Source: an uncultured archaeon
GTDB lineage: Archaea > Iainarchaeota > Iainarchaeia > Iainarchaeales > DATDZZ01
Length of the DNA: 32,000 nt
Direction: 5' to 3'
Assembly: GCA_964373795.1 (NCBI GenBank)
Contig: CAYJVY010000001.1
Span: 1-32,000 of the forward strand
The position numbers and the translations under genes were made by a program. Of the stretch, positions 5,089 to 20,185 are shown in pieces (position 1 is the stretch's first letter; the number at the start of each line of letters is the position of its first letter). The notes under the pieces were generated by a model. That model had not been told where the DNA came from and made no database searches. It was given only the letters and a program-made list of their open reading frames with translations.

Positions 5089-5095
5089 TTCTGCC

Positions 5096-5251: not shown

Positions 5252-5980
5252 ATGAGGAAACCCAATCTATTCAGAGAAAATCGTTTTTTGTCAATTCCAT
5301 TAAATCAAGATGCACAACGCGAATTAAATGAGTCCTGGAAAGCGTTTGAAAGACGAATAGCTAAAAACGCTCCTGGATTTCAAAAAAAGGAAATTTTTGT
5401 TGTAGATGAAAAAGGAGTTACAACAAGAGTTAAAGTTGCTCCAAGAGAATTAAGACAAGGAAAGTTTAGAAAGTCTTATCCAACAGAATTTACTTCGCAG
5501 GCATTGGAAAGACTTGAAAGAATAAGGCAAAGAAAATCTAGAAAAATTGAAACTCAAGTAAGAAAATTAAGAAAAAAACTTGAAGCTGAAAATCCTAGAT
5601 TTAAAAGATTAATGAATGCAGTTTCAGCATTGCAAGAAGAAATTAATAATAAATCTACACAAAAACATATTAGAGTAGATGTTGAAAAAACTTTAAAAGG
5701 ATTAAAGATTTCAATAACTCTTTTCACAACAGACATTAGATTAATTTTAAGAGATCTTGAACAACAAATTGATGTTTGTAAAAAAATAATTGAATTATCT
5801 GTTCTTGAAAGAAGTGCTACTTATTTGATTAAAAGGCTGGCTAAAGAAGAAGGTTTTCCAAAAACAGTTATTGACAGAATTGAAGGAACACTTAATTTTT
5901 TAAGTAGAAAAAAATCTGAATTAGATGTACAAATCCATCAATTTGAGGTAGTGAAAAGAAGATTAGAACAATCGATATAA
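5252..5980 (+). CDS. basic coiled-coil hypothetical protein (242 aa)
   Basis: ORF preceded by SD-like GAGTGA 7 nt upstream. K/R/E-rich heptad-like sequence. No family recognised. Followed after 18 nt by the RNase P subunit gene. Confidence 0.6.
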   Translation: MRKPNLFRENRFLSIPLNQDAQRELNESWKAFERRIAKNAPGFQKKEIFVVDEKGVTTRVKVAPRELRQGKFRKSYPTEFTSQALERLERIRQRKSRKIETQVRKLRKKLEAENPRFKRLMNAVSALQEEINNKSTQKHIRVDVEKTLKGLKISITLFTTDIRLILRDLEQQIDVCKKIIELSVLERSATYLIKRLAKEEGFPKTVIDRIEGTLNFLSRKKSELDVQIHQFEVVKRRLEQSI

Positions 5981-5998
5981 GAAGAGGGAAAAAATTTA

Positions 5999-6313
5999 AT
6001 GGATAAAAAAAATTTAATTCAAGTAATTGCAGTTGAAAGAATGCATAGATTAATTGAATTAGCTGAACAAGAGTTTCAAAGCCATCCTGAAAGAAGTAAA
6101 AGATTTATTGAATTAATTAAAAAAATTTCTTCAAGAAATAAAGCAAGAATTCCTTTAGAGTTAAGGCAAAGGTTTTGCAAGAAATGCAATACTTTTTGGA
6201 TTGAAGGAAAAAATGTTCAAAAAAGAATTAAAGGAAAAAGTGTAAGCACTAAATGTCTTAAATGTGGACAAGTTAAAAGAATTAATTTAACGCCGAGCAG
6301 CCGGCGAGGCTGA
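5999..6313 (+). CDS. rnp4: RNase P protein component 4 (Rpp21/Rpr2 family)
   Basis: N-terminal helical region (IAVERMHRLIELAE..PERSKRFIELIKKIS) followed by a zinc ribbon CKKC-x(26)-CLKC, as in archaeal Rpp21. Confidence 0.8.
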   Translation: MDKKNLIQVIAVERMHRLIELAEQEFQSHPERSKRFIELIKKISSRNKARIPLELRQRFCKKCNTFWIEGKNVQKRIKGKSVSTKCLKCGQVKRINLTPSSRRG

Positions 6314-6377
6314 GTCAAAAGCCGGCGAGGCTGAGTCAAAAGCCGGCGAGGCTGAAGCGATCAGCCGGCGAGGCTGA
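6300..6377 (+). repeat. four direct copies of GC-rich 14-mer GCCGGCGAGGCTGA (period 21, 21, 22 nt)
   Basis: Copies at 6300-6313, 6321-6334, 6342-6355 and 6364-6377, read directly. Copy 1 encodes the last residues and the stop of Rpp21. Confidence 0.9.
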
Positions 6378-6475
6378 AACAAAAATCAGAATTTTTACAC
6401 TGCTTTTTAAACAATGAATTAGTTGATTAACGTAAAATGGAGAACTATTTTAAACTTGTTTTTTCCAATTTTTGT

Positions 6476-6952
6476 ATGAAAAAATTTTTAGCAGTTTTAT
6501 TGTTAATTCTTTTTTTGCTTTCAGCAGCAAATGCATTCAAAAACAATGATTCAAATAATAAAGTTTTAAACAAATATATTGTACAATCCAAATTCGTAGT
6601 TGGAAAAGATTTTCTTGGATGCAAAAAATTTAAAGAATTTTCCAAATATCCTGTGCCGAATTTTTTTATTAAAGTTTCCAAAAAAGGATTTAATGAAAAA
6701 ATTTTTGAAGCACGTTTTGGAAAAGTATTAAGTAAAGGAGTTGCTTGCACTCTTTTTTTTGAAAGGAAATCAAAATATTGTGAATTGTATTGTGTTACTT
6801 CAACTAAAGCTTTGGTTGAAAATCCTCCAATTCCTTATCCAATAAGGCTTCCTGAAACCCTTATTCAAAAAATAATTTCAAAGAATTCTTTAAACCCTAA
6901 TTGGAGTGAAAAAACTCCTTTTCTAGATGTAAGGCCTTTTAGTTCAAGGTAA
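6476..6952 (+). CDS. secreted hypothetical protein (158 aa from ATG 6476)
   Basis: Sec-type signal MKKFLAVLLLILFLLSAANA begins at the second in-frame ATG. No family recognised. Confidence 0.55.
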   Translation: MKKFLAVLLLILFLLSAANAFKNNDSNNKVLNKYIVQSKFVVGKDFLGCKKFKEFSKYPVPNFFIKVSKKGFNEKIFEARFGKVLSKGVACTLFFERKSKYCELYCVTSTKALVENPPIPYPIRLPETLIQKIISKNSLNPNWSEKTPFLDVRPFSSR

Positions 6953-7068
6953 TAATTCAAAGCAAAAACCAATGTTTTTAAACCATTCCATGCAAAAAAT
7001 CTTTAGAAAATCTTTTTCTGTAGCTCCACTTTTAAAGTGTTGAGCCACATACACCGAGAGGTGAATTA

Positions 7069-7683
7069 ATGAGTGTATTTGAAGTTCCAGCACAAGAATT
7101 AATTGAAGAAATAGCAGTTGACTTAAAGGAAAATAAAAAAGTTCCTCAGCCAACATTTGTTCCATTCATTAAATCAGGAGTTCATAGAGAAAGAGCTCCT
7201 CAAAACAAGGATTGGTGGTTTATTAGAACTGCTTCAATTTTGAGAAGAATTTACATTGATGGCCCTCTAGGAACTGAAGACCTTAGAAACTATTATGGTG
7301 GAAAAAAAGCTAGAGGAGTTCGCCCGCATAGAAAAAGAAAGGCAAGCGGAAAAGTAATTAGAACTTGCTTGCAAGCACTTGAAAAACAAAAATTAATTGA
7401 ACAAGTAAAACCTTTAGGAAGAAAAATTACTTCTTTAGGAGAAAAATACTTAAATCAAAAAGCTAAAGAGGTTTCATTAAATTTGGAAAACATTTTAAAA
7501 GAAAAAGCTGTTGAAAAAATTAAACAAATGCAGAAAAGAACTGAAAGAGACAGAGAATTACAAGAAGCAAGAAAGGTTAAAGCAGAAATCCAAAAAACAG
7601 TGAAAAAAGAAAAAATAAAGAAGAAAAAAGAAGACGAAAAAAAGGAAGAAGTTGAAAAAAAGAAAGAAAAAAAGAAAAAATAA
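7069..7683 (+). CDS. rps19e: 30S ribosomal protein S19e with about 65-aa Lys/Glu-rich C-terminal extension
   Basis: Conserved S19e blocks (KSGVHRERAPQNKDWWFIRTASILRRIY, YGGKKARGVRPHRKRKASGKVIRTCLQALEK). Strong SD GAGGTGA at 7058-7064. Confidence 0.9.
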   Translation: MSVFEVPAQELIEEIAVDLKENKKVPQPTFVPFIKSGVHRERAPQNKDWWFIRTASILRRIYIDGPLGTEDLRNYYGGKKARGVRPHRKRKASGKVIRTCLQALEKQKLIEQVKPLGRKITSLGEKYLNQKAKEVSLNLENILKEKAVEKIKQMQKRTERDRELQEARKVKAEIQKTVKKEKIKKKKEDEKKEEVEKKKEKKKK

Positions 7684-7695
7684 AGAGATTAAAGC

Positions 7696-8022
7696 ATGTT
7701 AGAAGAGGAAGAAATTAAAAGCAAAAAATTAAATGAATTAAAGCAACAAGCATTACTACAACAAAAACAGCAAGAAAAAGAATTAGTTGCAGAGCAACAA
7801 GTTGATTACATTTTAAGACAGGTTTTAACTCCTGAAGCAAAGCAAAGACTTTCAAACATTAGACTAGTAAACAAGCAATTGTATTTACAAGTAGCTCAAG
7901 GATTAATTCAATTAGTTAAAGCAAAACAAATTGATGAAAAAATATCTGATGAACAATTAAAAGCATTACTTGAAAATGTTTCTTCAAGAGGGAGAAAAGA
8001 AATTAATATTAAAAGAATGTGA
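7696..8022 (+). CDS. dsDNA-binding protein, PDCD5/MTH1615 family
   Basis: Motif ILRQVLTPEAKQRLSNIRLVN ... LIQLVKAKQI..KISDEQLKALLE matches the PDCD5/TFAR19 family. Its position after rps19e is the conserved archaeal order. Confidence 0.8.
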   Translation: MLEEEEIKSKKLNELKQQALLQQKQQEKELVAEQQVDYILRQVLTPEAKQRLSNIRLVNKQLYLQVAQGLIQLVKAKQIDEKISDEQLKALLENVSSRGRKEINIKRM

Positions 8023-8032
8023 GGAAAAAAAA

Positions 8033-8221
8033 ATGGCTTCGAATAGAGATCAAGACTTGAAAGATTTTTTAATTGCAATCCGGAAAAAAATTGGTGCAGG
8101 AGTAACTAATGCTCCTGTATGGGCAATGCAAAAAGCAGGGAAAAGAATTTGGAATCAGTATGGAAAAAGGCATTGGAGAAGCACTAATTTAGGAAAGCAA
8201 TTCAGAAAAGAAAACGATTAA
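8033..8221 (+). CDS. rpl39e: 50S ribosomal protein L39e
   Basis: NAPVWAMQKAG...GKRHWRSTNLG matches the L39e signature (VP.W ... RHWRRTKL). Start moved to ATG 8033 (SD-like GTGAGGA upstream), because the track start 7970 overlaps the upstream gene. Confidence 0.85.
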   Translation: MASNRDQDLKDFLIAIRKKIGAGVTNAPVWAMQKAGKRIWNQYGKRHWRSTNLGKQFRKEND

Positions 8222-8232
8222 AGAGTGATTAA

Positions 8233-8664
8233 ATGACTGAAAAAACTCAACAAGACTATGTTGTTCCTTTTTATAATGCAATGCTTAGAGGTTGGAAGGT
8301 TCGCACAAATAATGCTTTAAAGGAATTAAAAAAATTTGTTTCAAGACATTGGAGAAATGACAATATTGTAATAACTGGGGAAGTGAATGAATTTATTTGG
8401 AGAAGAGGAAAATTCAAGATTCCAAACAAGATTGAAGTTACAACTAAAAAAGTTGACGGAAATATTAGAGTTTACTTGAAAGGCTCAAAATTAATTGAAG
8501 AAGAAAAAAAGAAGCTAGAACAAGAAAAGAAAAAAAAGGAAGAAAAAAAAGTGGAAAAGAAAACAGAAGAACCTAAAGAAAAAGAAGAAGAATTAAAAAG
8601 AAAACAAGAAGAAAAAAACGCAAAAGAAGACGCGCAAAAAAAAATGGAAATCAAGAAGGGATAA
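8233..8664 (+). CDS. rpl31e: 50S ribosomal protein L31e with about 55-aa Lys/Glu-rich C-terminal extension
   Basis: Core ALKELKKFVSRHWRNDNIVITGEVNEFIWRRGKFKIPNKIEV matches L31e. SD GAGTGAT upstream. Confidence 0.85.
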   Translation: MTEKTQQDYVVPFYNAMLRGWKVRTNNALKELKKFVSRHWRNDNIVITGEVNEFIWRRGKFKIPNKIEVTTKKVDGNIRVYLKGSKLIEEEKKKLEQEKKKKEEKKVEKKTEEPKEKEEELKRKQEEKNAKEDAQKKMEIKKG

Positions 8665-8679
8665 GTAATAGGGTTAAAC

Positions 8680-9336
8680 ATTGAAAAAGGAGATATTCTT
8701 TCCAGCCCTTATGTTGGAATTTTTGCTTCAATTACAGACAAGATCGGTTTATTCCCATTAGAATTGGATAAAAAGCAAGCAAAAAAATTTGAAGATTTTT
8801 TTGGAGTAGAAATAATTCAAACAAGTATTGCAAATAGTTCTTTAATTGGAATTCTAGTTAAAGGAAATTCTAATGGATTTATTGTACCAAAAATAATTGA
8901 AGAAGAAGAAAAAAAAAGGTTTAAAGAACAAGGAATTAAATTCAAGGAAATTAAATCAGAATTCACTTCAATTGGAAATCTCTTAGCTTTAAATGATTCG
9001 ATTGGCATTGCAAGCGAGTTATTTTCAAACAAGGTAATTAAAGAAATGGAGAAATTTCTTAAAACAAAGTTAATTAAAAAAAATCTAGCAAATAATTATT
9101 TAACTGGAGCAAACCTTGTAATTACAGGCAAAGGATTTATAGTGAATCCAAACATTTCAGAAAAGGAATTTAAATTCCTTGAAAAAACACTTAATTTAAA
9201 AGGAATGGCTACAACAATAAATTACGGGGATCAATTCGTTTCAAACAGTTTAATAGCAAATAGTTTTGGAATATTTGCAGGAAAACTTTCAACAGGATTT
9301 GAAATGCTTAGAGTAGATGAATCATTAAACAAATAG
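8680..9336 (+). CDS. eif6: translation initiation factor 6 (aIF6); 5' end uncertain, probable non-canonical ATT start
   Basis: aIF6 pentein-repeat sequence. The frame is open from 8665, and residues IEKGDILSSPYVGIFASITDKIGLFPLEL upstream of the track start (TTG 8764) align with the conserved aIF6 N-terminus. There is no in-frame ATG/GTG/TTG in 8665-8763. Confidence 0.8.
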   Translation: MEKGDILSSPYVGIFASITDKIGLFPLELDKKQAKKFEDFFGVEIIQTSIANSSLIGILVKGNSNGFIVPKIIEEEEKKRFKEQGIKFKEIKSEFTSIGNLLALNDSIGIASELFSNKVIKEMEKFLKTKLIKKNLANNYLTGANLVITGKGFIVNPNISEKEFKFLEKTLNLKGMATTINYGDQFVSNSLIANSFGIFAGKLSTGFEMLRVDESLNK

Positions 9337-9347
9337 AAGGAGATTAA

Positions 9348-9527
9348 ATGACTGAATTTGAAGTAAAAGGAATAATAACTGTAAAAAAGCAGACAAAAAA
9401 ATTCACTAAAAAAGTTACAGCTCCAAATGAAAAAATGGCTAGAGAATTCACTTATTGCTTAATTGGATCAAATCATAAAATGCCAAGAAGATTTATTTCA
9501 ATTAATGAAGTAAAACAATTAGCTTAA
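9348..9527 (+). CDS. rplX: 50S ribosomal protein LX (L18Ae family), 59 aa
   Basis: Not in the ORF track (below 60 aa). Hand translation: MTEFEVKGIITVKKQTKKFTKKVTAPNEKMAREFTYCLIGSNHKMPRRFISINEVKQLA. SD GGAGAT upstream. It occupies the canonical slot between aIF6 and pfdA. Confidence 0.75.
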   Translation: MTEFEVKGIITVKKQTKKFTKKVTAPNEKMAREFTYCLIGSNHKMPRRFISINEVKQLA

Positions 9528-9528
9528 A

Positions 9529-10038
9529 ATGAAGGAAAAAAAAATGGTTGAAGAAAAAAAAATTGAATTAACTTCTCAACAGCTTGAAGCATTATATTCA
9601 CAGGAAAGATCTAGACTTGAAACAATTAATAGACAAAAAAACTATTTAATTAACATATTAAATGAACACGATGCAACAATTAATGCATTAAATGAAATAA
9701 ATAAAACAAAAGAAAAAGAAATACTAGTTCCATTAGGCGGAGGAGTATTTGTTGATGCGACCCTTGGCAGTAAAAAAGTGAAAACCAGTTTAACAAACAA
9801 TGTATTAATGGATTCAACTATTGAAGAAACAGTTAAAGAGTTGGAGAAAAAAAAGTCCGAAATAAAAGAAGGACTTGAAAAACTAGAAAAAGATCAAAAC
9901 AACATCATAACAAACATTAATAATTTGGGAAGAATCATTAACATTGGAAGACAACAATCTCAAAAATTCAGAGAAGAACAATTAAAAACTGAAAATAAGA
10001 CAGATGAATCAAAAAAGAAAGAATTAAAGAAAAAATAG
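9529..10038 (+). CDS. pfdA: prefoldin alpha subunit
   Basis: Coiled coil, beta-hairpin core (ILVPLGGGVFVDATL), coiled coil. Conserved position upstream of ftsY. An alternative start is ATG 9544. Confidence 0.8.
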   Translation: MKEKKMVEEKKIELTSQQLEALYSQERSRLETINRQKNYLINILNEHDATINALNEINKTKEKEILVPLGGGVFVDATLGSKKVKTSLTNNVLMDSTIEETVKELEKKKSEIKEGLEKLEKDQNNIITNINNLGRIINIGRQQSQKFREEQLKTENKTDESKKKELKKK

Positions 10039-10075
10039 TTTTGAAATCTTTTTCTTTCTCTGAGTGTGAACGGTA

Positions 10076-11269
10076 ATGTTTGATTTTCTTAAAAAAAAGA
10101 TTTCACAATTCACTGAAAAAGTAAAAGATGTTCTTCAAAAAAAAGCAGTTGAAAAACCTGAAGAAAAAATTGTTCAACCTATTTCTGAAAAAGAAAAAAC
10201 TGAAGAAGAAGAAAAATCTGAAATTGAAGAAAATATTAAAACAACTGCCGAAACTCTTTCAAAAGAAGAACAAGAAGTCATTGGGAAAAAAGTTGAACAA
10301 AAAATAGAACTCCCTGTAGAAAGAGTTAAAGGTTTAAGTGAAGAAGTTCAAAAACTGAGGGAAGAAAAAGGAAGAGAATTAAAAGCCAAAACAAGGGTTT
10401 CAAAACAATTAACTAGTTTTTTGTTTGGCGGAATAACAATTGAAGAAAAAGATGTTACAGATTTTTTATGGGAGTTTGAATTATCTTTGCTTGAAGCAGA
10501 TGTAGAGCAAGAAACTGCTCAAGAAATAGTTCAAGAAATTAAAAAAGAATTGATTGGAAAAAAATTGAAGAGAGGAGAAGACTTAACTGGGTTTCTGAAA
10601 AAAGAAATTACTACTGCTTTAATTAAAGTAATGGGAAACCATGAAGAAGATTTGTTTTCAAAAATTCAAGGAAAAAAACCTTTTGTAATATTAATGCTTG
10701 GCCCAAACGGAGCAGGAAAAACAACTACTATTGCTAAACTAACTCATTTAATGCAAAAAAATGGAAAAAAAGTTGTTTTAGCTTCAGCTGATACTTTTAG
10801 AGCTGGAAGTATCGAACAAATAGAAGTTCATGCAAAAAAATTGAATGCAAGAGTAATAAAGCATTCTTATGGATCTGATCCAGCTGCAGTTGCATTTGAT
10901 GCAGTGAAAGCAGCTGAAGCCTCTAAAGCAGATATAGTATTAATTGATTCAGCTGGAAGGCAAGAAACAAACAAAAACTTAATGCAAGAATTGCAAAAAA
11001 TTAATAGAGTAGTTAAACCTGATTTAAAGATTTTCGTAGGAGAAGCATTATCTGGAAATGCTTTACTAGAACAAGCAACTAAATTTAATCAAGAACTAGG
11101 GTTAGATGGATTTATTTTAACCAAAATTGACACTGATGCAAAAGGGGGAACAAGCATTTCATTGCTATATAAATTAGATAAACCAATTTTTTTTGTAGGA
11201 ATAGGGCAACACTACGATGATTTAGTAAAATTTTCTCCGGAATTCATTCTAAAAAGAATTATTTCATGA
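10076..11269 (+). CDS. ftsY: signal recognition particle receptor FtsY
   Basis: SRP-GTPase motifs GPNGAGKTTTIAKL, DTFRAGSIEQ, DSAGRQ, TKIDTDAKGG. Acidic N-terminal A-domain. Confidence 0.95.
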   Translation: MFDFLKKKISQFTEKVKDVLQKKAVEKPEEKIVQPISEKEKTEEEEKSEIEENIKTTAETLSKEEQEVIGKKVEQKIELPVERVKGLSEEVQKLREEKGRELKAKTRVSKQLTSFLFGGITIEEKDVTDFLWEFELSLLEADVEQETAQEIVQEIKKELIGKKLKRGEDLTGFLKKEITTALIKVMGNHEEDLFSKIQGKKPFVILMLGPNGAGKTTTIAKLTHLMQKNGKKVVLASADTFRAGSIEQIEVHAKKLNARVIKHSYGSDPAAVAFDAVKAAEASKADIVLIDSAGRQETNKNLMQELQKINRVVKPDLKIFVGEALSGNALLEQATKFNQELGLDGFILTKIDTDAKGGTSISLLYKLDKPIFFVGIGQHYDDLVKFSPEFILKRIIS

Positions 11270-11283
11270 AATTACTCTTTCGC

Positions 11284-11297
11284 AAAAAATTAAATAC
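11284..11297 (+). promoter_or_regulatory. BRE/TATA AAAAAATTAAATAC about 27 nt upstream of ATG 11319
   Basis: Read directly. No SD between box and ATG, consistent with a leaderless mRNA. Confidence 0.45.
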
Positions 11298-11318
11298 TTC
11301 AATACAACATATAATTTA

Positions 11319-13292
11319 ATGCAAAAAAACAATTCACAAGCCCAGGTTTCTTTAGAATATTTGTTGATTTGGGGAGTAGTTTTTGTTGGGGTTTTAATTG
11401 GAGCCTATGTTGTTATAACAAATTTTAATATAGCTTTAAATGCAGTAAAAAATGAAGCAACTGGAACAGCAGAAACTGGAACTACTCCTTCAAACCAAGA
11501 ACAAGGAACACTAATTTTGTCTGTAACTGACGCTCCTGTAGAGGGATTAAAGGAATTAAATATTACTTTAAGTGGAGTTGAAGTGCATAAAGATGGTAAA
11601 TGGTTTTCAATTCAACCAGCACAAAAAAGCTTTGAATTGCTTAAATTAGCTGATGCAGCAGAGGTAATTGGAGTAAAGAATTTGCCCATAGGAAAATATA
11701 CTCAAGTCAGATTACAAGTAGTTAAAGCAACAATAAAATTTGAAAATGGTTCGACAGCAAATGTTAAAGTTCCAAGTGGAGAAATAAAACTAGTCGATGA
11801 ATTCACAATAGAAAAAGATCAAAATATTTATTTGTATTTAGACTTTAAACCTGAAAGTCTGATAAAAGAAACAGGAAATCAATTCATTTTAAGGCCAGTA
11901 ATAAAATTGCAGAACTTTGATGAATTTGGAAAAGATTTATGTGAAAGCACTAGTTGTAGTGATGGAAATCCTTGTACAGAAGACAGTTGTAATGCTAGGT
12001 TTTGTAAAAATAGACCTGTTAAAGACGGAGTTAGTTGTGGAAATAATGGAGTATGCAAATCAGGAGTATGTGTTGATAAAACTATTACAACAACAGATCC
12101 TTGCAGTAAAATAAATTTTTCAAGATCTGGACAAGACTTAAGTACTCCTGAAAATGTTTGGTTTTTCTATCCTGGAAGTTCAGTTTTATCTGACTTAGAT
12201 GGAGATAAAGATTTAGACTTGGTTCAAAGCGGGGAAGTTAGTGATGAACAAATTCCTTGGATGCCATCAAGTTTCAAATTAGCTAAAGTAAAAGTGTTTT
12301 TTAACGACGGAAAAGGAAAGTTCACTGATTCAGGGCAATGGCTTGGATATCATACAATGTTTTCTGCAGTAGAAGACATTGATGGAGACAACGATAAAGA
12401 TATTGTTACAGGAACCTGGTATTACGGCGCTTCTATAAAAGTTTACTTAAATAATGGCCAAGGACAATTCACTGAATTGCCTCAAGACCCAAATGAAATT
12501 GGATGGGTTCCTTATATTGGTTTACAATACCTTCCAAGACTAGCAGACCTTGATGGAGATAAAGACTTGGATTTACATATAGGTTTATGGCCTTCTTCAA
12601 AACCTGGAAGTTTTATTTTATTAAACGATGGAAAAGGAAATTTTAAGAAAGCACTTAATACTGGATTAGAAAACAGGCCTTCAAGTCTTTCAGTTGAAGC
12701 AGGTGGAACAATTTCATCAGCAATATTTGATTTTGATAAAGATGGAGACAACGATTTAGTTGAAGAAAGTTATACTTGGTATCCAGAATACAAACACACT
12801 TATTGGATTTACAAAAATAATGGAAGCGCTCAATTCACTTTAACTCAAAAACAAGACGCGTCATGGGGAAGCGGCATTGGATATGCAGATTTTGATAGAG
12901 ACGGGGATATTGATTTTATAAGTGCATCTATTATTTTCAAAAACGATGGAAATGGGGTTTTCACAATGAGTGCATTCCCATATTATGTAGCATCATACTA
13001 TAACGATCCTATAACAGATATTGATAATGTAAATGGCCCAGACTTATTTAATGGATCTAATTATGCAATGCTAAATAATGGTGATGGAACTTTTACTCCA
13101 TGCTACCTTCCAAACCTAGCTCCTCCAAATAGTTCAAATATTTACTACAATTACGTACTTGGCTTTGGAGACGTTGACGGAGACGGAGACAATGATGCAA
13201 GTACATTGATTTACGTGTATAATGTAGTCAATGGAAACATTCAATATGATGTGAATATAGATATCTTAGTTAACAAATTAATCCCAAATTGA
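11319..13292 (+). CDS. surface protein: class III (type IV pilin-like) signal, DUF4382-like domain, 8-Cys module, 7-repeat FG-GAP/VCBS propeller
   Basis: N-terminus MQKNNSQAQVSLEYLLIWGVVFVGVLIGAYVVI (QxSxEyL class III motif). TDAP...VPSGEIKL...LDFKPESL resembles DUF4382. Cys module at aa 208-252. Seven Asp-rich Ca-loop repeats: DLDGDKDLDL, DIDGDNDKDI, DLDGDKDLDL, DFDKDGDNDL, DFDRDGDIDF, DIDNVNGPDL, DVDGDGDNDA. Confidence 0.8.
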   Translation: MQKNNSQAQVSLEYLLIWGVVFVGVLIGAYVVITNFNIALNAVKNEATGTAETGTTPSNQEQGTLILSVTDAPVEGLKELNITLSGVEVHKDGKWFSIQPAQKSFELLKLADAAEVIGVKNLPIGKYTQVRLQVVKATIKFENGSTANVKVPSGEIKLVDEFTIEKDQNIYLYLDFKPESLIKETGNQFILRPVIKLQNFDEFGKDLCESTSCSDGNPCTEDSCNARFCKNRPVKDGVSCGNNGVCKSGVCVDKTITTTDPCSKINFSRSGQDLSTPENVWFFYPGSSVLSDLDGDKDLDLVQSGEVSDEQIPWMPSSFKLAKVKVFFNDGKGKFTDSGQWLGYHTMFSAVEDIDGDNDKDIVTGTWYYGASIKVYLNNGQGQFTELPQDPNEIGWVPYIGLQYLPRLADLDGDKDLDLHIGLWPSSKPGSFILLNDGKGNFKKALNTGLENRPSSLSVEAGGTISSAIFDFDKDGDNDLVEESYTWYPEYKHTYWIYKNNGSAQFTLTQKQDASWGSGIGYADFDRDGDIDFISASIIFKNDGNGVFTMSAFPYYVASYYNDPITDIDNVNGPDLFNGSNYAMLNNGDGTFTPCYLPNLAPPNSSNIYYNYVLGFGDVDGDGDNDASTLIYVYNVVNGNIQYDVNIDILVNKLIPN

Positions 13293-13294
13293 AA

Positions 13295-13306
13295 ATATTT
13301 AAATAC
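13295..13306 (+). promoter_or_regulatory. TATA box ATATTTAAATAC about 29 nt upstream of ATG 13330
   Basis: Read directly. Same architecture as at 11284, 3861 and 26285. Confidence 0.45.
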
Positions 13307-13329
13307 TTTAAAACTCTAATCAATTCAAG

Positions 13330-15114
13330 ATGAATAAAAAAGTATTAATTTTAGTTTTCATTTTATTTTTTGCTTCTCTTTCCTTTGCTAAAAGCGTTGA
13401 ATTAATTAAAGCTGAAAATAATTATTTTATTCAATCAGATGGATTAGTTAAAGTTGAAGAAAATTTTTGGGCAAGATTTTCAGGGGAATTCACTGAAGGA
13501 TTTAGGATACTTGATTTTTCTAAAGGAGAAGAATTATTAAATGTAAAAGCTTTTGTGAATGAAGAAGAAGTCCCAGTAAGACTTATTGAAATCTCTGCTT
13601 CAAGAAAAGAAATTGATTATGAGTTATTTCCTTATAAAAAAAATCCTTCAAAAACTCATGTAAAACTTTTGTTTGAAGTAAAAAAAGCTGTTAAAGCATT
13701 CAATGATGTAGGCGAATTTGAATTAGATGTATGGGGCAATCAATGGGATTTAATGTTACCTGATTTGAACGGAAAAATTGTTTTGCCTAAAACTGTTTCA
13801 AATGCAAAAGAAATTTATTCTTGGGGCAGGCCAACACTCCAAGGAAAAATTGGTTTAGCTAAAGACAATCAATCACTTGTATTTGAGACATTTAATGTTC
13901 CCGCAAGACAAGCAGTAAAAATTACTATGGCTTTTCCAAGAGAATTACTTGATTCAACAGAGAATGCAATTGAAATTCAAGAAAATGGTTTGCAAAAAAT
14001 TATTGAAAGAGAAGAATTTTCAACAAAAGTTGATCCATTTCTAGCTTCAATAATTACTGCATTAATTGTTTTAGTTAACCTTTTACTGGTTTTAATTATT
14101 CCTATAAGCTTTATTGTTTTATGGTTTCATAGTGGAAAAGAACCACAAGTTGAATATAATGCAATTTATGAAAGAGACATTCCATTTAATTATTCTCCTG
14201 CAATTGTTTCATCTTTAATTAACATTGAATCCAAAAAACCTTCAGAAAAAGCAGTTATAGCAGTAATACTTGATTTGTGCTTGAAAGGATTTTTTAAATT
14301 AAGAAAAATAGAAAAAGAAAAATTTTTAGGATTAATTGGCGGAGGCACTGATTTTGAAATACTGTTTGAAGAAAAAACTCAAAACAAAAAGTTGGATGAA
14401 TTAACTGAACAAGAAAAAACTGTTTTCAAATGGATTACAATACATCATGAAGACAAAACATCTTTTAGTGAATTAGAAAAAGAAATCAAAAACGATGGAA
14501 ACTTCTCGAATAAATTCCTTGACTGGCAAAAACAAGTTGAAAAAGAAATGCAAAAAATGAAATTTTTTAAAAGCACTTTTGCAGAATATGCTTTTCCAAT
14601 AATCGCGGCAATTACAATAATTACATCATTTGTTTTCATATGGATCCTTAATGACATGCTTTTTTTCATTATATTTGCAGTTGTTTTTATTGAAGGATTT
14701 ATTGGATTTGCAGTATATAAAAAAGCTTTAACTGCTCGCACTAAAGAAGGAACCCTCCATTATTTCAAATGGATGAAATTAAAGGCTTTCTTGAATGACT
14801 TCAGTCAATTAAAAACAATGCCTGCAGACGCAATTATTTTATGGGAAAAATTCCTAGTTTATGCAATTGTTTTAGGTTGTGCAGACAAAGTTCAAGAAGC
14901 AATGCAAGTAGTATTTGCAACTCAAAATCAAATTCATTCAAATATTTTTGTAGGAAGCATTGGATATAGTTCTTTCAGAAATTTAACTAATTTTGCTCCA
15001 ACTTTTAGTTCAACTATTGCAAGCTCTACTTCTACAAGCGGGTCAAGTGGATTCAGTGGAGGAGGCTCTTATGGAGGAGGTGGATCGTTCGGTGGAGGAG
15101 GAGGATTTAGGTAA
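13330..15114 (+). CDS. DUF2207-like membrane protein with Gly-rich C-terminal tail
   Basis: Signal peptide, large extracytoplasmic domain, several TM helices and a terminal GSSGFSGGGSYGGGGSFGGGGGFR tail, which is the typical DUF2207 layout as I recall it. Confidence 0.7.
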   Translation: MNKKVLILVFILFFASLSFAKSVELIKAENNYFIQSDGLVKVEENFWARFSGEFTEGFRILDFSKGEELLNVKAFVNEEEVPVRLIEISASRKEIDYELFPYKKNPSKTHVKLLFEVKKAVKAFNDVGEFELDVWGNQWDLMLPDLNGKIVLPKTVSNAKEIYSWGRPTLQGKIGLAKDNQSLVFETFNVPARQAVKITMAFPRELLDSTENAIEIQENGLQKIIEREEFSTKVDPFLASIITALIVLVNLLLVLIIPISFIVLWFHSGKEPQVEYNAIYERDIPFNYSPAIVSSLINIESKKPSEKAVIAVILDLCLKGFFKLRKIEKEKFLGLIGGGTDFEILFEEKTQNKKLDELTEQEKTVFKWITIHHEDKTSFSELEKEIKNDGNFSNKFLDWQKQVEKEMQKMKFFKSTFAEYAFPIIAAITIITSFVFIWILNDMLFFIIFAVVFIEGFIGFAVYKKALTARTKEGTLHYFKWMKLKAFLNDFSQLKTMPADAIILWEKFLVYAIVLGCADKVQEAMQVVFATQNQIHSNIFVGSIGYSSFRNLTNFAPTFSSTIASSTSTSGSSGFSGGGSYGGGGSFGGGGGFR

Positions 15115-15702
15115 ATGATTAAAGCAATTGTTTTTGACTGGGGAGGAGTACTAATTGACAGTCCATGGAATGAATTAATTGAAAATTGTTCACAAGAACT
15201 CGGCGTTGATGCAAATACATTTGAACGAGTTCACAAAATGCTTGAACCAGAATTCCAAAAAGGACTTAAAGAAAAAGATTACTTAAAAAAAGCATGCATT
15301 AAATTACAAATTCCTGTTCCACATGACATTTTTGTATGGAAAAAAGCCGTAGAAAAATCCTTTCATGAAAGAAAAGAAGTAATAAATTTGGCAAAAAAAT
15401 TACGCAAAAAAGGTTATAAAATTGGGCTCCTTTCAAACACTGAAATTCCAGCAGTAGAATATTTTTATAAACAAGGATATGACTTTTTTGATGTTGTCAT
15501 TTTTTCATGCAATGAAGGAGTCATCAAACCGGAGAAAAAAAGTTACAATATATTGATTGAAAGGCTTGAAACAAAACCAAATGAAATTATTTTTATTGAC
15601 GATCAATTGGAAAACATTGCTGGCGCCAAAAAAACAGGAATAAATGGAATTTTGTTTAAAAGCTTTAAACAAGTGAAAAATGATCTAAAAAAACTTATTT
15701 AA
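15115..15702 (+). CDS. HAD-superfamily hydrolase (subfamily IA-like)
   Basis: Motif I FDWGGVL, motif II LLSNT, motif III/IV K...IFIDDQLENIAGAKKTG. ATG directly abuts the upstream stop, and GGAGGAGGAGGA (15094-15105) acts as SD. Confidence 0.8.
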   Translation: MIKAIVFDWGGVLIDSPWNELIENCSQELGVDANTFERVHKMLEPEFQKGLKEKDYLKKACIKLQIPVPHDIFVWKKAVEKSFHERKEVINLAKKLRKKGYKIGLLSNTEIPAVEYFYKQGYDFFDVVIFSCNEGVIKPEKKSYNILIERLETKPNEIIFIDDQLENIAGAKKTGINGILFKSFKQVKNDLKKLI

Positions 15703-15854
15703 AAAGCCCTGCTTCGTCTTTTGACTAATTTTTGTAAAGTTTTAAATGATTTCTGAAATAAACTTTTGTTGTTGTAATCAATGTTACATCCAATATATTT
15801 ATATATTTGCACATAATATATTTATTTACACATAATTTATTTGGAGGCGGATAT

Positions 15855-16103
15855 TTGGCTACTATGACTTTGGCTGTGCCTGATGACCTGAAGCGTAAAA
15901 TGGACAAGTATGCGGAAATTAACTGGAGCGAGATTGCAAGACAAGCTTTCAAGAAAAGAATTGAAGACTTTGAATTTGTGAAAAGATTTATCTCCGATAG
16001 CGAGTTAACTGAAGAAGACGCTTTAAGGCTTGGTAAACTAGCTAAAAAAGGAATGGCAAAACGACTAAAAAAAGAAATCTTTTCAAGAAACAAAATAAGG
16101 TAA
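15855..16103 (+). CDS. ribbon-helix-helix (CopG/antitoxin-like) protein
   Basis: MTLAVPDDLKRKMDKYAEINWSEIARQAF is a typical RHH beta-strand plus helix. TTG 15855 lies 7 nt after GGAGG (15843-15847). ATG 15864 is the alternative start. The track start 15807 is unlikely. Confidence 0.6.
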   Translation: MATMTLAVPDDLKRKMDKYAEINWSEIARQAFKKRIEDFEFVKRFISDSELTEEDALRLGKLAKKGMAKRLKKEIFSRNKIR

Positions 16104-16209
16104 AAATATTCAATACTCTGGAACTTGCAAAAATTATTTTATAATAAAAGGCGCTATGAAAATTGTGAGAGCATTTTAAAATTCTTTTCAAAGCTAATTT
16201 TTATTGTTT

Positions 16210-17583
16210 ATGAGTTTAGGTGAAAAATTAAGAAATGCTTTAGAGAAGCTGCGAAACTCTTCAGCTTTAGATCAATCAGCTGTAAAAGAGGCAGTGAAAG
16301 AAATTCAAAGAGCATTAATTTCTTCAGATGTAGAAATCTCCTTAGTTTTAGATTTAAGTAAAAAAATTGAAGAAGAATCCTTCAAGGATCTGCCTGAAGG
16401 AGTCAACAGAAAAGAATTCGTAATCAAGGCAACTTATGATTTATTGGTTAGCTTGCTTGGCGGAGAAACAGTGGAGGTTCCTGAACGACCTAAAAAAATT
16501 TTATTAGTTGGAACCTTTGGACATGGAAAAACTACTTCAACAGCAAAGCTTGGAAAATATTATTCAAAAAAAGGATTAAAAGTTGGGGTAATTTGCGCAG
16601 ATTCTTTCAGGCCAGCTGCATTTGATCAATTAAAACAATTATGCGAGAAAGCACATTTAAAGTTTTATGGAAACAAAGAAGAAAAAAATGCTGCAAAAAT
16701 TGTGCAACATGGATTGCAGGAATTAAAGGAAACTGATTTAATTATTGTTGACTCTGCTGGAAGAAGTTCTTTAGATGAAGAACTAGTGAAAGAAATTAAG
16801 GAAATTAATTCCATTCTGAAACCAGAATTAAATTTACTTGTATTAGGAGCAGATATTGGTCAAATAGCTAAAAAACAAGCAATTGGTTTTCACGATGCAG
16901 TTGGAGTGCAAGGAGTAATTATTACTAAAATGGATGGCTCTGCAAAAGGAGGAGGAGCATTAGCTGCCTGCCATGTAACTAAAAGCCAGGTATACTTTAT
17001 TGGAGTAGGAGAAAAAATTGATGACTTTGAAGAGTTTAATGCTCAAAGATTTTTAAGCAGAATAATGGGTTACGGAGACTTGAAGGCTTTACTTGAAAAA
17101 GTTCAAGACATTGAATCAGAGGTTACTCCAGAACAACTAGAAAAAATAATGCAAGGAGAATTCAATCTTCAAATGTTTTACGATCAATTAAAGGCTGCTC
17201 GTTCAATGGGGCCAATAAAAAAAGTAATGGAGTTAATGGGTTTAGGTTATAAAATTCCGGACGAATTAATGGAAGGCGGAGAAAAAAAGCTTGATTCATT
17301 TAAAGTAATAATGGATTCAATGACAAAACAAGAAAAATCAGATCCAGAAATAATTAATTCCTCTAGAATCCAAAGAATTGCTAAAGGCTCTGGAACAAAA
17401 GAAAAAGACATTAGAGAATTAATTAAAAACTTCAAGCAAATGAAGAAAATGTTTAAAGAATTTAATAGAAGTAAAATGGATAAACAATTAATGCAAGGCA
17501 AGGGCGCAAATCTAGATTTAAATTCTTTAATGCAGAAATTCCAAGGAAAAAAACTAGCTAAAAAGAAATTCAAGTTAAGATAG
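16210..17583 (+). CDS. srp54: signal recognition particle protein SRP54
   Basis: N domain, then G domain (GTFGHGKTTSTAKL, DSFRPAAFDQL, DSAGR, TKMDGSAKGGGAL), then a Met-rich M domain. ATG 16210 preferred over TTG 16204. TATA-like ATTTTAAAATT lies about 28 nt upstream. Confidence 0.95.
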   Translation: MSLGEKLRNALEKLRNSSALDQSAVKEAVKEIQRALISSDVEISLVLDLSKKIEEESFKDLPEGVNRKEFVIKATYDLLVSLLGGETVEVPERPKKILLVGTFGHGKTTSTAKLGKYYSKKGLKVGVICADSFRPAAFDQLKQLCEKAHLKFYGNKEEKNAAKIVQHGLQELKETDLIIVDSAGRSSLDEELVKEIKEINSILKPELNLLVLGADIGQIAKKQAIGFHDAVGVQGVIITKMDGSAKGGGALAACHVTKSQVYFIGVGEKIDDFEEFNAQRFLSRIMGYGDLKALLEKVQDIESEVTPEQLEKIMQGEFNLQMFYDQLKAARSMGPIKKVMELMGLGYKIPDELMEGGEKKLDSFKVIMDSMTKQEKSDPEIINSSRIQRIAKGSGTKEKDIRELIKNFKQMKKMFKEFNRSKMDKQLMQGKGANLDLNSLMQKFQGKKLAKKKFKLR

Positions 17584-17600
17584 CTCTTACAAAATAACAA

Positions 17601-17611
17601 GATTTAAATTA
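17601..17611 (+). promoter_or_regulatory. TATA box GATTTAAATTA about 28 nt upstream of ATG 17634
   Basis: Read directly. Confidence 0.4.
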
Positions 17612-17633
17612 GTTACAATGATTTATATTTAAC

Positions 17634-18293
17634 ATGAAAAAAGTTTTTTCGCTTTTAATTTTTTTATTGTTTTTACAAACAAGTTTTGCACAAACAGAAA
17701 CAACTACTCAAACTCAAATTCTTGATTTCAGCGTAATTGTATCTGTAATAATTGTATTAGCATTTATTGTGTTATTTGTTTTAATTGCAATTGCAATAAT
17801 TGGGTTAGTTTACTATCTTGGATTTAAAGGAAGCGCTCATGTTCAGCCAAAACCAGTTACAAGAGACTCAGACTATTCCATGCCAAGAATTGTTTTAACT
17901 CCAAAAAAAGAAGAAGAAAAAGAACCAGAAATTTCAAAACCATTAGAAAAACCAGTGGAAAAACCTTTAACAACAGAAGAAAAAGAAACACAAGAAAATG
18001 AAGCAAAATCTCTTGCCTATAAAGAATTAGAATTAGATGACTCTTCAATAAAACAACCATTTGAAGAAAAAAAAGTAGTTGAAGAAATAAAAGAAAAACA
18101 GCCTAAAAAACTTTTTTCTTTTGGTTGGAAAACAAAAACCGAAACTGAATCAAAGCCAGTTGAAGAGGTAAAAGAAACTGAAAAAACAGAGGAAAAAGTT
18201 TTTGAAGCAAAACCAATAATTGAAACTGAGGAAGAAAAAGAAAAATCAAAAATTTCAAAAGCTTTTCTTGACAGATTTAAAATAAAAAAATAA
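17634..18293 (+). CDS. membrane protein: signal peptide, very short ectodomain, one TM helix, Glu/Lys-rich tail
   Basis: MKKVFSLLIFLLFLQTSFAQ signal, TM helix VIVSVIIVLAFIVLFVLIAIAIIGLVYYL, then a low-complexity E/K/P/T tail. No family recognised. Confidence 0.6.
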   Translation: MKKVFSLLIFLLFLQTSFAQTETTTQTQILDFSVIVSVIIVLAFIVLFVLIAIAIIGLVYYLGFKGSAHVQPKPVTRDSDYSMPRIVLTPKKEEEKEPEISKPLEKPVEKPLTTEEKETQENEAKSLAYKELELDDSSIKQPFEEKKVVEEIKEKQPKKLFSFGWKTKTETESKPVEEVKETEKTEEKVFEAKPIIETEEEKEKSKISKAFLDRFKIKK

Positions 18294-18303
18294 AGTGAAT
18301 TAA

Positions 18304-19128
18304 ATGGAGTTCTATTTACTAAGAGTAATTGTTTTATTAATAGGAAGTGCAATTGCATCTTACACTGATTTAAAGTCTGGCTATATTTACGATAAAATAA
18401 CCTATCCAATGATTGCAATTGGATTAATAATTAATTTATTTGAAAAAGAATTAATTCAAATTTATTTGCTTGCAGGAATAGTTTTTGTTTTAGGCTACTT
18501 GTTATATTTTACTGGAAAAATTGGAGGCGGAGACGTAAAACTCTTTATCGGAGTATCATTGCTAATGCCTTTTCTTAATTCAAGCATTCCATTTATTTTA
18601 TTAGTATTATTTTCAAGCGGAGTTATTAGCATCGTAGTTTTGTCTGTTTATTATTCCATTAAGTATTTTAAAAAAGGGATTGAATTAAATTTAATTAAGT
18701 CAAAATTGCCTGTAACTTTGTTTCTTTCAATACTGTTAATTGTTTATTTTTATTTTTTATATAACTTTAAAGTGATTTCATTAATTCCATTCATTGCATT
18801 AATTGTTATAGCAGTTTGTGCATTAATTTTCTTATTGCTTGAAAAAGGTATTAGAAAAGAATTTTTTTTGAAAAAAATTAAATTAAAGGATTTAGAAGAA
18901 GATGAAATAATTGCATTAGAGTTTGCTTCAGAAGAGTTAGTAAAAAAACTTGAATTAAATGGGAAAAGTATTTTAGGTGAAAAAGAAGTAAAGCAATTAA
19001 AGGAATTAAAAGTAAAAGAAGTGCCTGTTTATAGAAACCTTCCAAAATTTGCTCCATTTGTTTTCCTGGGAATAATTGGTTCTCTGTTGTTTCCTAATTT
19101 AATGGATTTATTTTTCATGTTAAAATAG
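18304..19128 (+). CDS. A24-family prepilin/preflagellin peptidase
   Basis: Polytopic membrane protein with both catalytic Asp contexts (SAIASYTDLKSGYIYD and GKIGGGDVKL). SD GTGAAT 6 nt upstream implies co-transcription with 17634-18293. Confidence 0.75.
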   Translation: MEFYLLRVIVLLIGSAIASYTDLKSGYIYDKITYPMIAIGLIINLFEKELIQIYLLAGIVFVLGYLLYFTGKIGGGDVKLFIGVSLLMPFLNSSIPFILLVLFSSGVISIVVLSVYYSIKYFKKGIELNLIKSKLPVTLFLSILLIVYFYFLYNFKVISLIPFIALIVIAVCALIFLLLEKGIRKEFFLKKIKLKDLEEDEIIALEFASEELVKKLELNGKSILGEKEVKQLKELKVKEVPVYRNLPKFAPFVFLGIIGSLLFPNLMDLFFMLK

Positions 19129-20185
19129 TTTTTTCAAAACTTAAACCATTGCAAGAAATTTTTGCAGGGGAATTTAACTCTCCTTCTACTTGAAAATCCA
19201 CGTTTAATAATTTTTTTAATACAAGCATGTTTGTTTGAGCATGCATTGTTAAATTCGTTGTTTCGATTTCGGATTTTCCTCTTGCAATAGCCATTAAAGG
19301 AAGTAATTGATCAACTAAATGCCTGTCAACAGGTTTTTGTTGAGCAGTTTCTTCAAGAAATCTTAATGCTGCTTGTTCGCCAATTTTTAGTGCAGGAACT
19401 CCTTTCACTCCTAATTCGCTTACTCCGATTCTTGCATCATTAGAGTAAAAAGCAATTAAATCAATTACTGATCCAATTGATTCCTTTAAATCAATTGAAT
19501 TAATTTCTTCAATTAAATCACATGAAAATTTTTCTTCCAAAATTTTTTTAGCTGCTTTTGCTTGATTTAATGCAACTTCTTTAGGCAAGCCACTTGAATT
19601 GGAAAAAATTTTAATAAATTTTGGTTCTCCTAAAGAAGTTAAATTAATTTTTTTTAAAGGAAATTTTGGTTTACTTGATTCAAACACTACTACTCCGTTT
19701 CCTAAAGGATTAAATCCATGCTTAATTAATTTGGCTTCAAAATTGCAGCCCATTTTATTTGCAATTGGCATAAAAACTTCTTTAAAATAATTAAATGAAG
19801 GAGAAAACGGAACATCAGTTCCTCCAACGATTCTTAAAGAAATTTTTTCTTCTGCAAACAAACATGAAAGAAAAATTGTTTGCAGTAAAAGAGTAATGCT
19901 TCCAGCTGTTTTAATGTTTACTGAAAAAGTTCCTCCTTGAATTTTTTTTGGATTAAAAAAAAGTTTAGTGGAATTTAAATTACAATGCTCTAATTCTGCA
20001 TTTGATAGTTTTGCAAGCGTTTGAACTGCAGTTAAATGCTGTGGCCTTAATCCTTGTTTTTCTCGACCTTTCCTAATATTAATTAATTTAATTGGTTTTT
20101 GAAGAAGAGTTGAAACACTTAAAGCAGTTCTTAAAACCTGGCCGCCGCCTTCTCCAAGAGAACAATCAAATTCAATTAAATCCAT
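19115..20185 (-). CDS. rtcA: RNA 3'-terminal phosphate cyclase
   Basis: N-terminal signature DCSLGEGGGQVLRTALSVSTLLQKPIKLINIR..R...GLRPQHL. Length 356 aa is typical. Confidence 0.9.
   Translation of the reverse strand: MDLIEFDCSLGEGGGQVLRTALSVSTLLQKPIKLINIRKGREKQGLRPQHLTAVQTLAKLSNAELEHCNLNSTKLFFNPKKIQGGTFSVNIKTAGSITLLLQTIFLSCLFAEEKISLRIVGGTDVPFSPSFNYFKEVFMPIANKMGCNFEAKLIKHGFNPLGNGVVVFESSKPKFPLKKINLTSLGEPKFIKIFSNSSGLPKEVALNQAKAAKKILEEKFSCDLIEEINSIDLKESIGSVIDLIAFYSNDARIGVSELGVKGVPALKIGEQAALRFLEETAQQKPVDRHLVDQLLPLMAIARGKSEIETTNLTMHAQTNMLVLKKLLNVDFQVEGELNSPAKISCNGLSFEKTILT

Follow-up and report, generated by a model that had tools for sequence, protein, structure and literature searches.

A predicted modular type IV pilin-like protein with an FG-GAP propeller encoded by an uncultured archaeon of the Iainarchaeota

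The gene at positions 11319..13292 (plus strand) of a 32,000-nucleotide stretch of DNA from an uncultured archaeon (Archaea; Iainarchaeota; Iainarchaeia; Iainarchaeales; DATDZZ01; GenBank assembly GCA_964373795.1, contig CAYJVY010000001.1, positions 1 to 32,000 of the forward strand), referred to here as the window, encodes a 657-amino-acid modular pilin-like surface protein. Within one open reading frame (ORF), this protein, the target of the analysis, joins an 8-residue leader, a hydrophobic helix, a DUF4382 domain, a module with eight cysteines, and an FG-GAP propeller, in that order. The reading favored here, with a probability of roughly 0.55, is that the target is a modular type IV pilin-like adhesin that is cut by a prepilin-type peptidase of the A24 family and shown on a type IV-like filament.

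The mechanisms by which DPANN archaea recognize and hold their hosts are largely obscure, and candidate adhesins are few. The target is a concrete candidate, with a predicted processing site between Ala8 and Gln9, a predicted Ca-dependent propeller, and a peptidase encoded in the same genome. The protein itself matches no NCBIfam family.

The pilin-like N-terminus

The ATG at 11319 is the first start codon of its frame, which gives a leader of exactly 8 residues (MQKNNSQA, 11319..11342; all features of the gene lie on the plus strand), with a predicted cut after Ala8; the leaders of homologues have 6-8 residues and end in Gly or Ala. With a slash at the predicted cut, the N-terminus is MQKNNSQA/QVSLEYLLIWGVVFVGVLIGAYVVI, in which Gln9 is +1 and Glu13 is +5. 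The pilin-like helix (aa 9-44, 11343..11450) begins Q(+1)VSLE(+5)Y and continues with a stretch of about 21 hydrophobic residues (aa 14-34), and AlphaFold2 models a helix over aa 6-44 with a predicted local distance difference test (pLDDT) score of 81-86 at residues 11-30. The EppA-processed DUF361 pilins of Methanococcus maripaludis are defined by a leader of 5-13 amino acids, Gln at +1, and Glu at +5 (PMC3875500), and the target has all of these, with a polar 8-residue leader, Q+1, E+5, and the helix, where a leader was taken as 5-13 polar residues ending in Gly, with Ala or Ser tolerated.

Five of the seven members of the target's family have the motif [GA]/[QN]xxxE(+5)Y with a hydrophobic helix behind it (MQKNNSQA/QVSLEYLLIW, MNGKKG/QAALEYLLIF, MFLANNRA/QASTEYTIVW, MGVIKG/NAALEYLLVV, and MFKLEKSA/QAGTEYLLVW). 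Glu(+5) and Tyr(+6) are invariant in these five, while the helix that follows is just 24-36% identical; Glu(+5), with Gln or Asn at +1, is also kept in P0132, a DUF4382 protein outside the family. A profile built from six N-termini, including that of P0132, was searched against 5.8 billion proteins, and its best matches were proteins of only 38-76 amino acids, some of them annotated as PF04021 or "UPF0333 family". P0271 was matched at E 5e-4 (example match MFMEEKA/QAALEYLLIIGAAVLV, E 5e-4), and P0274 and P0275, also among the matches, start MDEKG/QAALEYLLII. In the reciprocal direction, a hidden Markov model (HMM) of the small pilins alone ranked the family first among 484 proteins and gave the target 13.4 bits, compared with at most 3.2 bits for about 240 unrelated Sec, lipobox, and transmembrane (TM) N-termini, a test that is partly circular in that the small pilins had been retrieved with the family profile, and whose weight therefore rests on their independent annotation.

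These results support assignment of the N-terminus, as read from sequence, to the EppA/UPF0333 (PF04021) pilin type, and the original prediction of a class III, pilin-type signal gains support from the conservation of the motif and from the small pilins that head the profile matches. Spurious antisense ORFs apart, no other ORF in the window has a class III-like N-terminus, and the other exported proteins of the window carry ordinary Sec signals (13330, 17634, 26317) or lipoboxes (1129, 3891). The N-terminus does not match any N_methyl-type Pfam family (IPR012902-type motif), even at E values up to 10.

The cargo domains

Behind the helix, a flexible linker rich in Thr, Gly, Pro, and Glu (aa 45-61, 11451..11501), with pLDDT below 50 at aa 44-59 and a sequence that varies across the family alignment, leads to a DUF4382 beta domain (aa 62-199, 11502..11915), where PF14321 matches aa 62-193 (E 4.6e-20; 72.7 bits, cutoff 25). 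With aa 1-262 of the target as query, an exhaustive search found 2749 DUF4382 relatives, and the N-termini of the 147 best matches outside the family were surveyed. A strict lipobox stands directly before the domain in 89 and a relaxed one in 14 more, for a total of 103; the rest comprise 43 other TM or Sec starts and the single class III-like start of P0132. A related archaeon also encodes a lipobox-DUF4382 protein (L007). The target lacks a lipobox Cys anchor before the domain, its first Cys being residue 208. Because a lipobox is usual before DUF4382, and because the cargo cassette of the target's family sits behind varied N-termini, DUF4382 is taken for a membrane-proximal stalk domain, with the pilin-like helix as one of several interchangeable anchors. 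The usual position of the domain after a lipobox also led to rejection of DUF4382 as a globular pilin domain. A model of DUF4382 with the Cys module (aa 55-264, pLDDT 70.4) had no Foldseek match at E ≤ 1e-3 and showed weak beta-sandwich resemblances only; DUF4382 is regarded as a generic beta-sandwich. In the literature searched, the domain occurs in a single paper.

The stalk is followed by an 8-Cys, Dicty_CTDC-like module (Cys 208-251) with a further invariant Cys262 (11931..12104). Taken alone, aa 205-252 score below threshold for Dicty_CTDC/ADAMTS_CR_2 (23.6 bits against a cutoff of 27), and in multi-repeat relatives this module is a clear Dicty_CTDC match. All 10 cysteines of the target (C262, C595, and the eight module residues) are invariant in the seven family members. 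C262 (12102-12104) lies just before the propeller and C595 (13101-13103) in blade 6, and from these positions the pair may act as a disulfide clamp on the propeller. A paralogous 8-Cys Dicty_CTDC-like module (QVLCQNVNCNDKNPCTQDSCSQGVCSNKVLIDGTSCGIKEVCKLGQCV) is carried by a 275-amino-acid lipoprotein at 1129-1956 (plus strand; lipobox LVSGC), followed there by DUF2927 (E 2.5e-35), and the module is widespread in metagenomes, some proteins having as many as 11 copies in an array. In this genome the module is a mobile extracellular spacer.

The C-terminal part of the target is a seven-bladed FG-GAP beta-propeller (aa 267-652, 12117..13274), in which six of the Asp (Ca-type) loops are canonical and one is degenerate. 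Five stretches match FG-GAP_3 (PF13517; E 8.7e-26; 90.7 bits, cutoff 26.9). The Asp loops lie at aa 292, 353, 410, 471, 524, 567, and 618; six of the seven are full DxDxDxDxD loops, the one at 567 is degenerate (DIDNVNGPD), and six N-x-G-x-G-x-F motifs are present. The loop Asp residues are invariant in the seven family members, and many are also kept across 41 FG-GAP proteins. The AlphaFold2 model of the target, built from 41 aligned sequences (mean pLDDT 78.6, predicted TM-score (pTM) 0.66), consists of the helix at 6-44, a disordered linker at 44-59, the beta domain at 62-199, the Cys-rich module, and the propeller at 267-652, whose strands, as assigned by DSSP, fall into seven groups of about four with pLDDT mostly 80-97.

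The best Foldseek match in the PDB is a fungal N-acetylglucosamine (GlcNAc) lectin, PVL (4up4; E 3.6e-10, TMt 0.53), followed by the lectins PAL and AAL2 and then by CRTAC1, the teichuronic acid-binding UmbA4, and integrins alpha4 and alphaV. A sequence profile of the family searched against the PDB likewise found CRTAC1 (4.6e-8), PVL-type lectins, and integrins alphaV and alpha4. At about 19% identity and a TM-score of 0.53 to the best structural matches, ligand-site residues are not transferable. The loop count, the strand groups, and the lectin matches point to a closed seven-bladed ring, and the loops would be expected to bind Ca. The seven-repeat, integrin-like propeller of the original prediction is upheld by the same loops, strand groups, and structural and profile matches, as are the DUF4382 domain, by its Pfam match, and the 8-Cys module, by the invariance of its cysteines.

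A rare family with exchanged anchors

The full architecture occurs in just six other proteins among 5.8 billion clusters, with 35-49% identity to the target, and the family amounts to about ten clusters among 15 billion proteins. A metagenome scan added just one further full-length locus, L010, which is the same as P0003; the other 51 loci found were mostly the Cys module alone, and a few had partial FG-GAP or DUF4382. The relatives are DPANN-affiliated, as had been anticipated. Among family members, one cargo cassette stands behind four kinds of N-terminus, which makes the family a small natural experiment on modes of surface display.

Predicted processing and display

An A24 (prepilin-type) aspartic peptidase is encoded at 18304..19128 (plus strand; Pfam Peptidase_A24, E 1e-14) and is the candidate processing enzyme. 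Both catalytic Asp residues align with those of FlaK (PDB 3S0X; D22 and the GGGD motif), and these agreements settle in its favor the earlier identification of the gene. At least 319 orthologue-like matches of about 270 amino acids and 42-54% identity occur in DPANN archaea, and the named ones are A24 or prepilin peptidases of Candidatus Diapherotrites, Iainarchaeum, or unclassified archaea. It is assigned here to the A24 family as a whole and not to EppA in particular. On this alignment the enzyme is catalytically intact, and the genome encodes the peptidase that class III processing calls for.

The pre-protein would insert in the membrane by its N-terminal hydrophobic helix, and the A24 peptidase would cut after Ala8 at the cytoplasmic face, so that a helix of the Epd/UPF0333 "helix-only" pilin type, opening with Gln(+1) and Glu(+5), is left. 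This helix could then join a type IV-like filament as a low-abundance (minor) subunit, most likely at the tip, or else with the cargo held at the filament surface by the flexible linker. The cargo would face outward as a DUF4382 stalk, a disulfide-rich spacer, and a Ca-loop FG-GAP propeller, and the ligand of the propeller may be a glycan or protein carried by another cell or surface. An Epd-type "system 1", in which the major pilin lacks a globular domain, has been reported for methanogens and some DPANN archaea (bioRxiv 10.64898/2026.04.22.720090), and the helix-only module of the target fits that system. Archaeal pilin genes are often far from the assembly genes (PMC3875500).

Attachment of the target to a host is conjecture. 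A bolder version is doubtful, namely that a host-dependent DPANN archaeon carries the target at the tip of an Epd-type pilus as its host-recognition adhesin, an archaeal counterpart of the bacterial proteins PilX2 and PilY1 whose Ca-loaded propeller binds glycans of the host S-layer or envelope. If it were true, the interchangeable N-termini of the family would record DPANN archaea moving one cassette between pilus and membrane display.

Alternative explanations

Several observations weigh against filament display. PF04021 (Class_IIIsignal) is the top Pfam match for the isolated 60-amino-acid N-terminus of the target, at 14.3 bits and E 0.039, below the gathering threshold of 23.7 bits; P0002 comes closest to that threshold among the homologues (21.8 bits), and other members have no match. 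The target has Gln, not Lys or Arg, at -2 and Ala, not Gly, at -1. The FlaFind-type rule, which reportedly goes back to Szabo et al. in 2007, is said to call for a charged residue (Lys or Arg) at -2; the relatives have Lys (P0002, P0004), Arg (P0003), or Ser (P0005, P0132), and Ser is also found at -2 in P0277, a small protein annotated as UPF0333. The reciprocal small-pilin test has the circularity noted above, and the target's helix has no globular pilin domain packed against it. No pilus ATPase or platform gene is found among the window ORFs scanned with Pfam (a few short ones were identified solely by synteny with L066, a related 508-kb contig) or annotated in the matching Logan contig, with the search for assembly machinery covering 32 kb of the genome; no pilus genes lie within 10 kb of any homologue, and no other pilin-like genes occur in the homologue loci, spurious antisense ORFs apart. 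Finally, the DUF4382-Cys-propeller cassette is found behind a plain TM helix without the motif in P0007, behind a Sec signal and an extra domain in P0006/P0121, and behind a different repeat domain in L006/P0122, from a metagenome-assembled genome of Candidatus Woesearchaeota. Because the cassette varies in its N-terminus and most DUF4382 proteins are lipoproteins, the helix may be merely one interchangeable anchor.

The same facts can be read as pointing to a protein that is class III-processed and yet stays with the cell, its helix retained by the membrane or by a short pseudopilus-like assembly, as in the bindosome proposed for class III-signal sugar-binding proteins of Sulfolobus, with the propeller as a surface lectin or binding protein. 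Thousands of archaeal binding proteins with class III signals are not classical pilins (bioRxiv 10.64898/2026.04.22.720090), DUF4382 normally sits directly behind a lipid anchor, as in the lipobox glycoprotein HVO_1030, the type of anchor varies in the family, and pilus genes are absent nearby, both in the window and in homologue loci. Yet the closest relatives of the N-terminus are helix-only pilins, and Glu(+5) is conserved together with Tyr(+6). Glu+5 is linked to filament assembly in type IV pilins, and a mere anchor has no need of it. Since a type IV filament-like assembly is part of the bindosome model too, this reading differs from filament display in degree only and is, on balance, a possible but rather unlikely account of the target.

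An atypical Sec signal, or a signal anchor that is never cleaved and makes the target a type II membrane protein, would reduce the Q..E motif to a functionless relic and the target to a membrane-tethered propeller. The PF04021 score below threshold, the Gln at -2, and Lys3 as the sole positive charge of the leader fit such a protein; in P0007 the motif is missing and a plain TM helix precedes the whole cargo, and a possible A-x-A-like site (LNA/V, aa 39-42) can be read in the sequence after the helix. However, this site is not conserved in homologues, the motif has been kept in five diverged members while the adjoining helix residues drift, a hydrophobic stretch of about 21 residues is long by the standard of Sec h-regions, the window's ordinary Sec signals and lipoboxes look quite different, and the score of the target on the small-pilin profile stands well apart from those of other signal and TM N-termini, all of which makes an uncleaved anchor improbable. 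Equally improbable, and overlapping with the other alternatives, is that the cargo is no cell adhesin, instead handling free glycans or polymers as a Ca-dependent lectin or scavenging module, or serving as an S-layer-associated structural protein. Its structure is indeed matched best by soluble GlcNAc lectins (PVL, PAL, and AAL2) and by UmbA4, which binds teichuronic acid, and free-living bacteria very commonly have FG-GAP/VCBS proteins, in diverse roles; however, the low similarity to these structures means that ligand-site residues cannot be carried over to the target, lectin activity and adhesion are mutually compatible, and the Pfam scan found no catalytic domain. Display of the target on a type IV-like filament remains the favored reading.

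Genomic neighborhood

A TATA-like decamer, TTAAATACTT, read from the sequence at 11290..11299 (plus strand), lies 20-29 nt 5′ of the target ATG. A second copy at 13299-13308 (plus strand) lies 22-31 nt 5′ of the ATG of the next gene, which encodes a DUF2207 membrane protein (13330..15114, plus strand), and a third is found at 85-94 on the minus strand. Three copies in the window compare with 0.44 expected, and three were reached in 2 of 100 shuffles. The first copy may be the target's own promoter, giving a leaderless transcript, and the decamer may be a TATA/BRE-like promoter element common to the two genes; its position 20-31 nt upstream of each ATG suggests that target and DUF2207 are separate leaderless transcripts, perhaps co-regulated.

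The related contig L066 has the gene order Tmk, Rpr2, S19e, dsDNA-binding protein, L31e, eIF6, prefoldin, FtsY, SRP54, a 222-amino-acid protein, an EamA fragment, A24, RtcA, epimerase, and PcrB, with which thirteen genes of window positions 3156-22005 are colinear. The target, DUF2207, HAD, and orf98 genes (11319-16103) have no counterpart in L066, where FtsY and SRP54 adjoin; DUF2207 is thus present beside the target and absent from the syntenic relative. A signal-peptide, TM, and E/K-rich protein (17634-18293) fills a slot of the same conserved FtsY-SRP54-x-A24-RtcA-epimerase-PcrB block. This conserved DPANN block puts the A24 peptidase beside the protein-targeting genes FtsY and SRP54. Because the family is so rare, the simpler reading is that the 11319-16103 block is an insertion in the lineage of the window; the nearness of the peptidase is then incidental, and a "cell-contact adhesin system" as a locus is unsupported.

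The original prediction had described surface proteins as neighbors, and both DUF2207 and the E/K-rich membrane protein were found; it had also stated correctly that the window lacks a pilus ATPase or platform gene, none appearing among the ORFs scanned or annotated. Its proposal of a local adhesin or pilus system that takes in the A24 peptidase and the neighbors was rejected, as the peptidase and the E/K-protein slot belong to a housekeeping block that exists in L066 without the adhesin, and homologues sit among housekeeping genes and have no gene neighbors in common.

At the edge of the inserted block, a small ORF at 15807-16103 (plus strand; probable start ATG 15866, MTLAVPDDLKRKMDKYAEINWSEIARQAF...) has no Pfam match and looks like a ribbon-helix-helix or antitoxin-type protein. 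The SRP54 ORF (16204-17583, plus strand) is listed with a TTG start; the ATG at 16210 (MSLGEKL...), two codons downstream, is likelier and would explain why the listed sequence has no exact match in the protein collection. Other exported proteins include a 306-amino-acid predicted lipoprotein at 3891-4811 (plus strand; lipobox LLSGC), which is rich in W/Y/K repeats and has no Pfam match, and a 709-amino-acid protein at 26317-28446 (plus strand), which has a Sec-type signal peptide and no Pfam family and is kept in the Logan contig of the same organism. As such proteins coexist with the target, lipobox, Sec, and class III-type N-termini stand side by side in this archaeon. At 23409-25076 (plus strand), a ThyX protein has Thy1 at aa 328-517 behind an N-terminal extension of about 320 amino acids without a confident family.

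Small pilin genes of the PF04021/UPF0333 type (53-55 amino acids) were found elsewhere directly after, or overlapping by 1 base, a gene for a HerA/FtsK-like DUF87 ATPase (L065, 6251-7713; L062, 5434-8162; L063; L064). In two contig types, the gene at the DUF87 position encodes an 853-amino-acid protein with a LAGLIDADG intein. No T2SSE-type ATPase lies near the small-pilin and DUF87 genes in these four loci, and helix-only pilins of these archaea may have an unusual partner in the DUF87 ATPase.

Comparison with known systems

A close precedent is bacterial. PilX2 of Nanosynbacter lyticus TM7x, an episymbiont of the Saccharibacteria within the CPR (Candidate Phyla Radiation), is a minor pilin with a C-terminal seven-bladed propeller, and its deletion halves host binding (PMC12206443). 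Like the target, it combines a pilin-type helix with a seven-bladed propeller and has a non-canonical signal peptide, and it comes from an ultra-small organism that lives attached to other cells, as the archaeon of the target may. The role of PilX2 in host binding is the one originally proposed for the target, with function tested in PilX2 only. PilX2 differs in being bacterial, in having a globular pilin domain and an RCC1-type rather than an FG-GAP propeller, in lying in a type IV pilus locus with pilA2, pilB2, and pilC2, and in lacking DUF4382 and the Cys module.

More than 1200 modular pilins, in 264 architectures, are known from bacteria, and the published list includes fusions of IPR012902 with IPR013517 (FG-GAP) and PilY1 variants with FG-GAP; the simplest pilin-FG-GAP architecture is known from 5 proteins, and Streptococcus sanguinis PilB (vWA) and PilC (lectin) are further modular pilins (PMC8179133). 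They share with the target a pilin carrier, a short linker, and an adhesion module, and the target's cargo is likewise non-pilus and grafted C-terminally through the linker at aa 45-61. Metal-dependent binding modules occur among them and a tip location is predicted, both of which can be likened to what is proposed for the target. The bacterial proteins carry the IPR012902 N-methylation motif, whereas the target is without it and has a helix-only archaeal carrier of the Q+1/E+5 type, and the cargo order DUF4382-CTDC-propeller is not among the bacterial architectures listed (PMC8179133). By analogy, the target would work like a modular pilin, yet outside the bacterial (IPR012902) set. The tip adhesins PilY1/PilC also use a Ca-binding beta-propeller, putative in the target, for adhesion at the pilus tip, but they are not pilins and dock on minor pilins, with a propeller family of their own (IPR008707), which was not found in the target by Pfam at E values up to 0.1. 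Tad pili have exchangeable tips with variable domains for cell contact (PMC12075869).

Among archaea, the EppA-processed DUF361/PF04021/UPF0333 pilins (MMP1685, EpdA-C, MMP1283; PMC3875500) resemble the target in their short leader, +1 Gln, +5 Glu, and hydrophobic helix. In M. maripaludis the pilin genes lie scattered, at a distance from those for the ATPase and platform, and the major pilin is essentially helix only (PMC3875500). These pilins have 67-299 amino acids, compared with 657 and three extra domains in the target, which further differs from them in its Ala at -1, Gln at -2, and PF04021 score below threshold. The class III substrate-binding proteins of Sulfolobales and other archaea (bindosome; bioRxiv 10.64898/2026.04.22.720090) are similar in placing a large extracellular protein on a class III signal and helix, away from assembly genes; their cargo is an ABC-type solute-binding domain, whereas that of the target is a stalk and propeller. 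Archaeal class III-signal binding proteins and PilY-like adhesins are on record in their thousands (bioRxiv 10.64898/2026.04.22.720090).

The cargo has relatives of its own. PVL-type fungal lectins, CRTAC1, and integrin alpha heads share the fold class, the seven blades, and the Asp-rich Ca loops, but they are eukaryotic, soluble or type I membrane proteins whose pockets cannot be mapped onto the target at about 19% identity. DUF4382 surface lipoproteins, such as L007 and the N-glycosylated lipobox protein HVO_1030 of Haloferax volcanii (PMC8241124), are surface glycoproteins in which the domain directly follows an anchor and a short linker, as in the target; their anchor is a lipobox Cys (89-103 of 147), whereas that of the target is a pilin-like helix.

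The original prediction had regarded the domain combination as uncharacterized. That view holds for this exact architecture, and no publication joining FG-GAP, archaea, and pilin was found in the literature searched; the design itself is known in bacteria, from pilin-FG-GAP fusions and from PilX2, and a pilin-borne propeller is therefore not a new concept. The new elements are a helix-only carrier of archaeal type, a cargo ordered DUF4382-CTDC-FG-GAP, a DPANN setting, and the swapping of anchors within a tiny family. The target would thereby extend the "modular pilin" principle, which experiments have demonstrated in bacteria including TM7x, to the helix-only pilin type of archaea.

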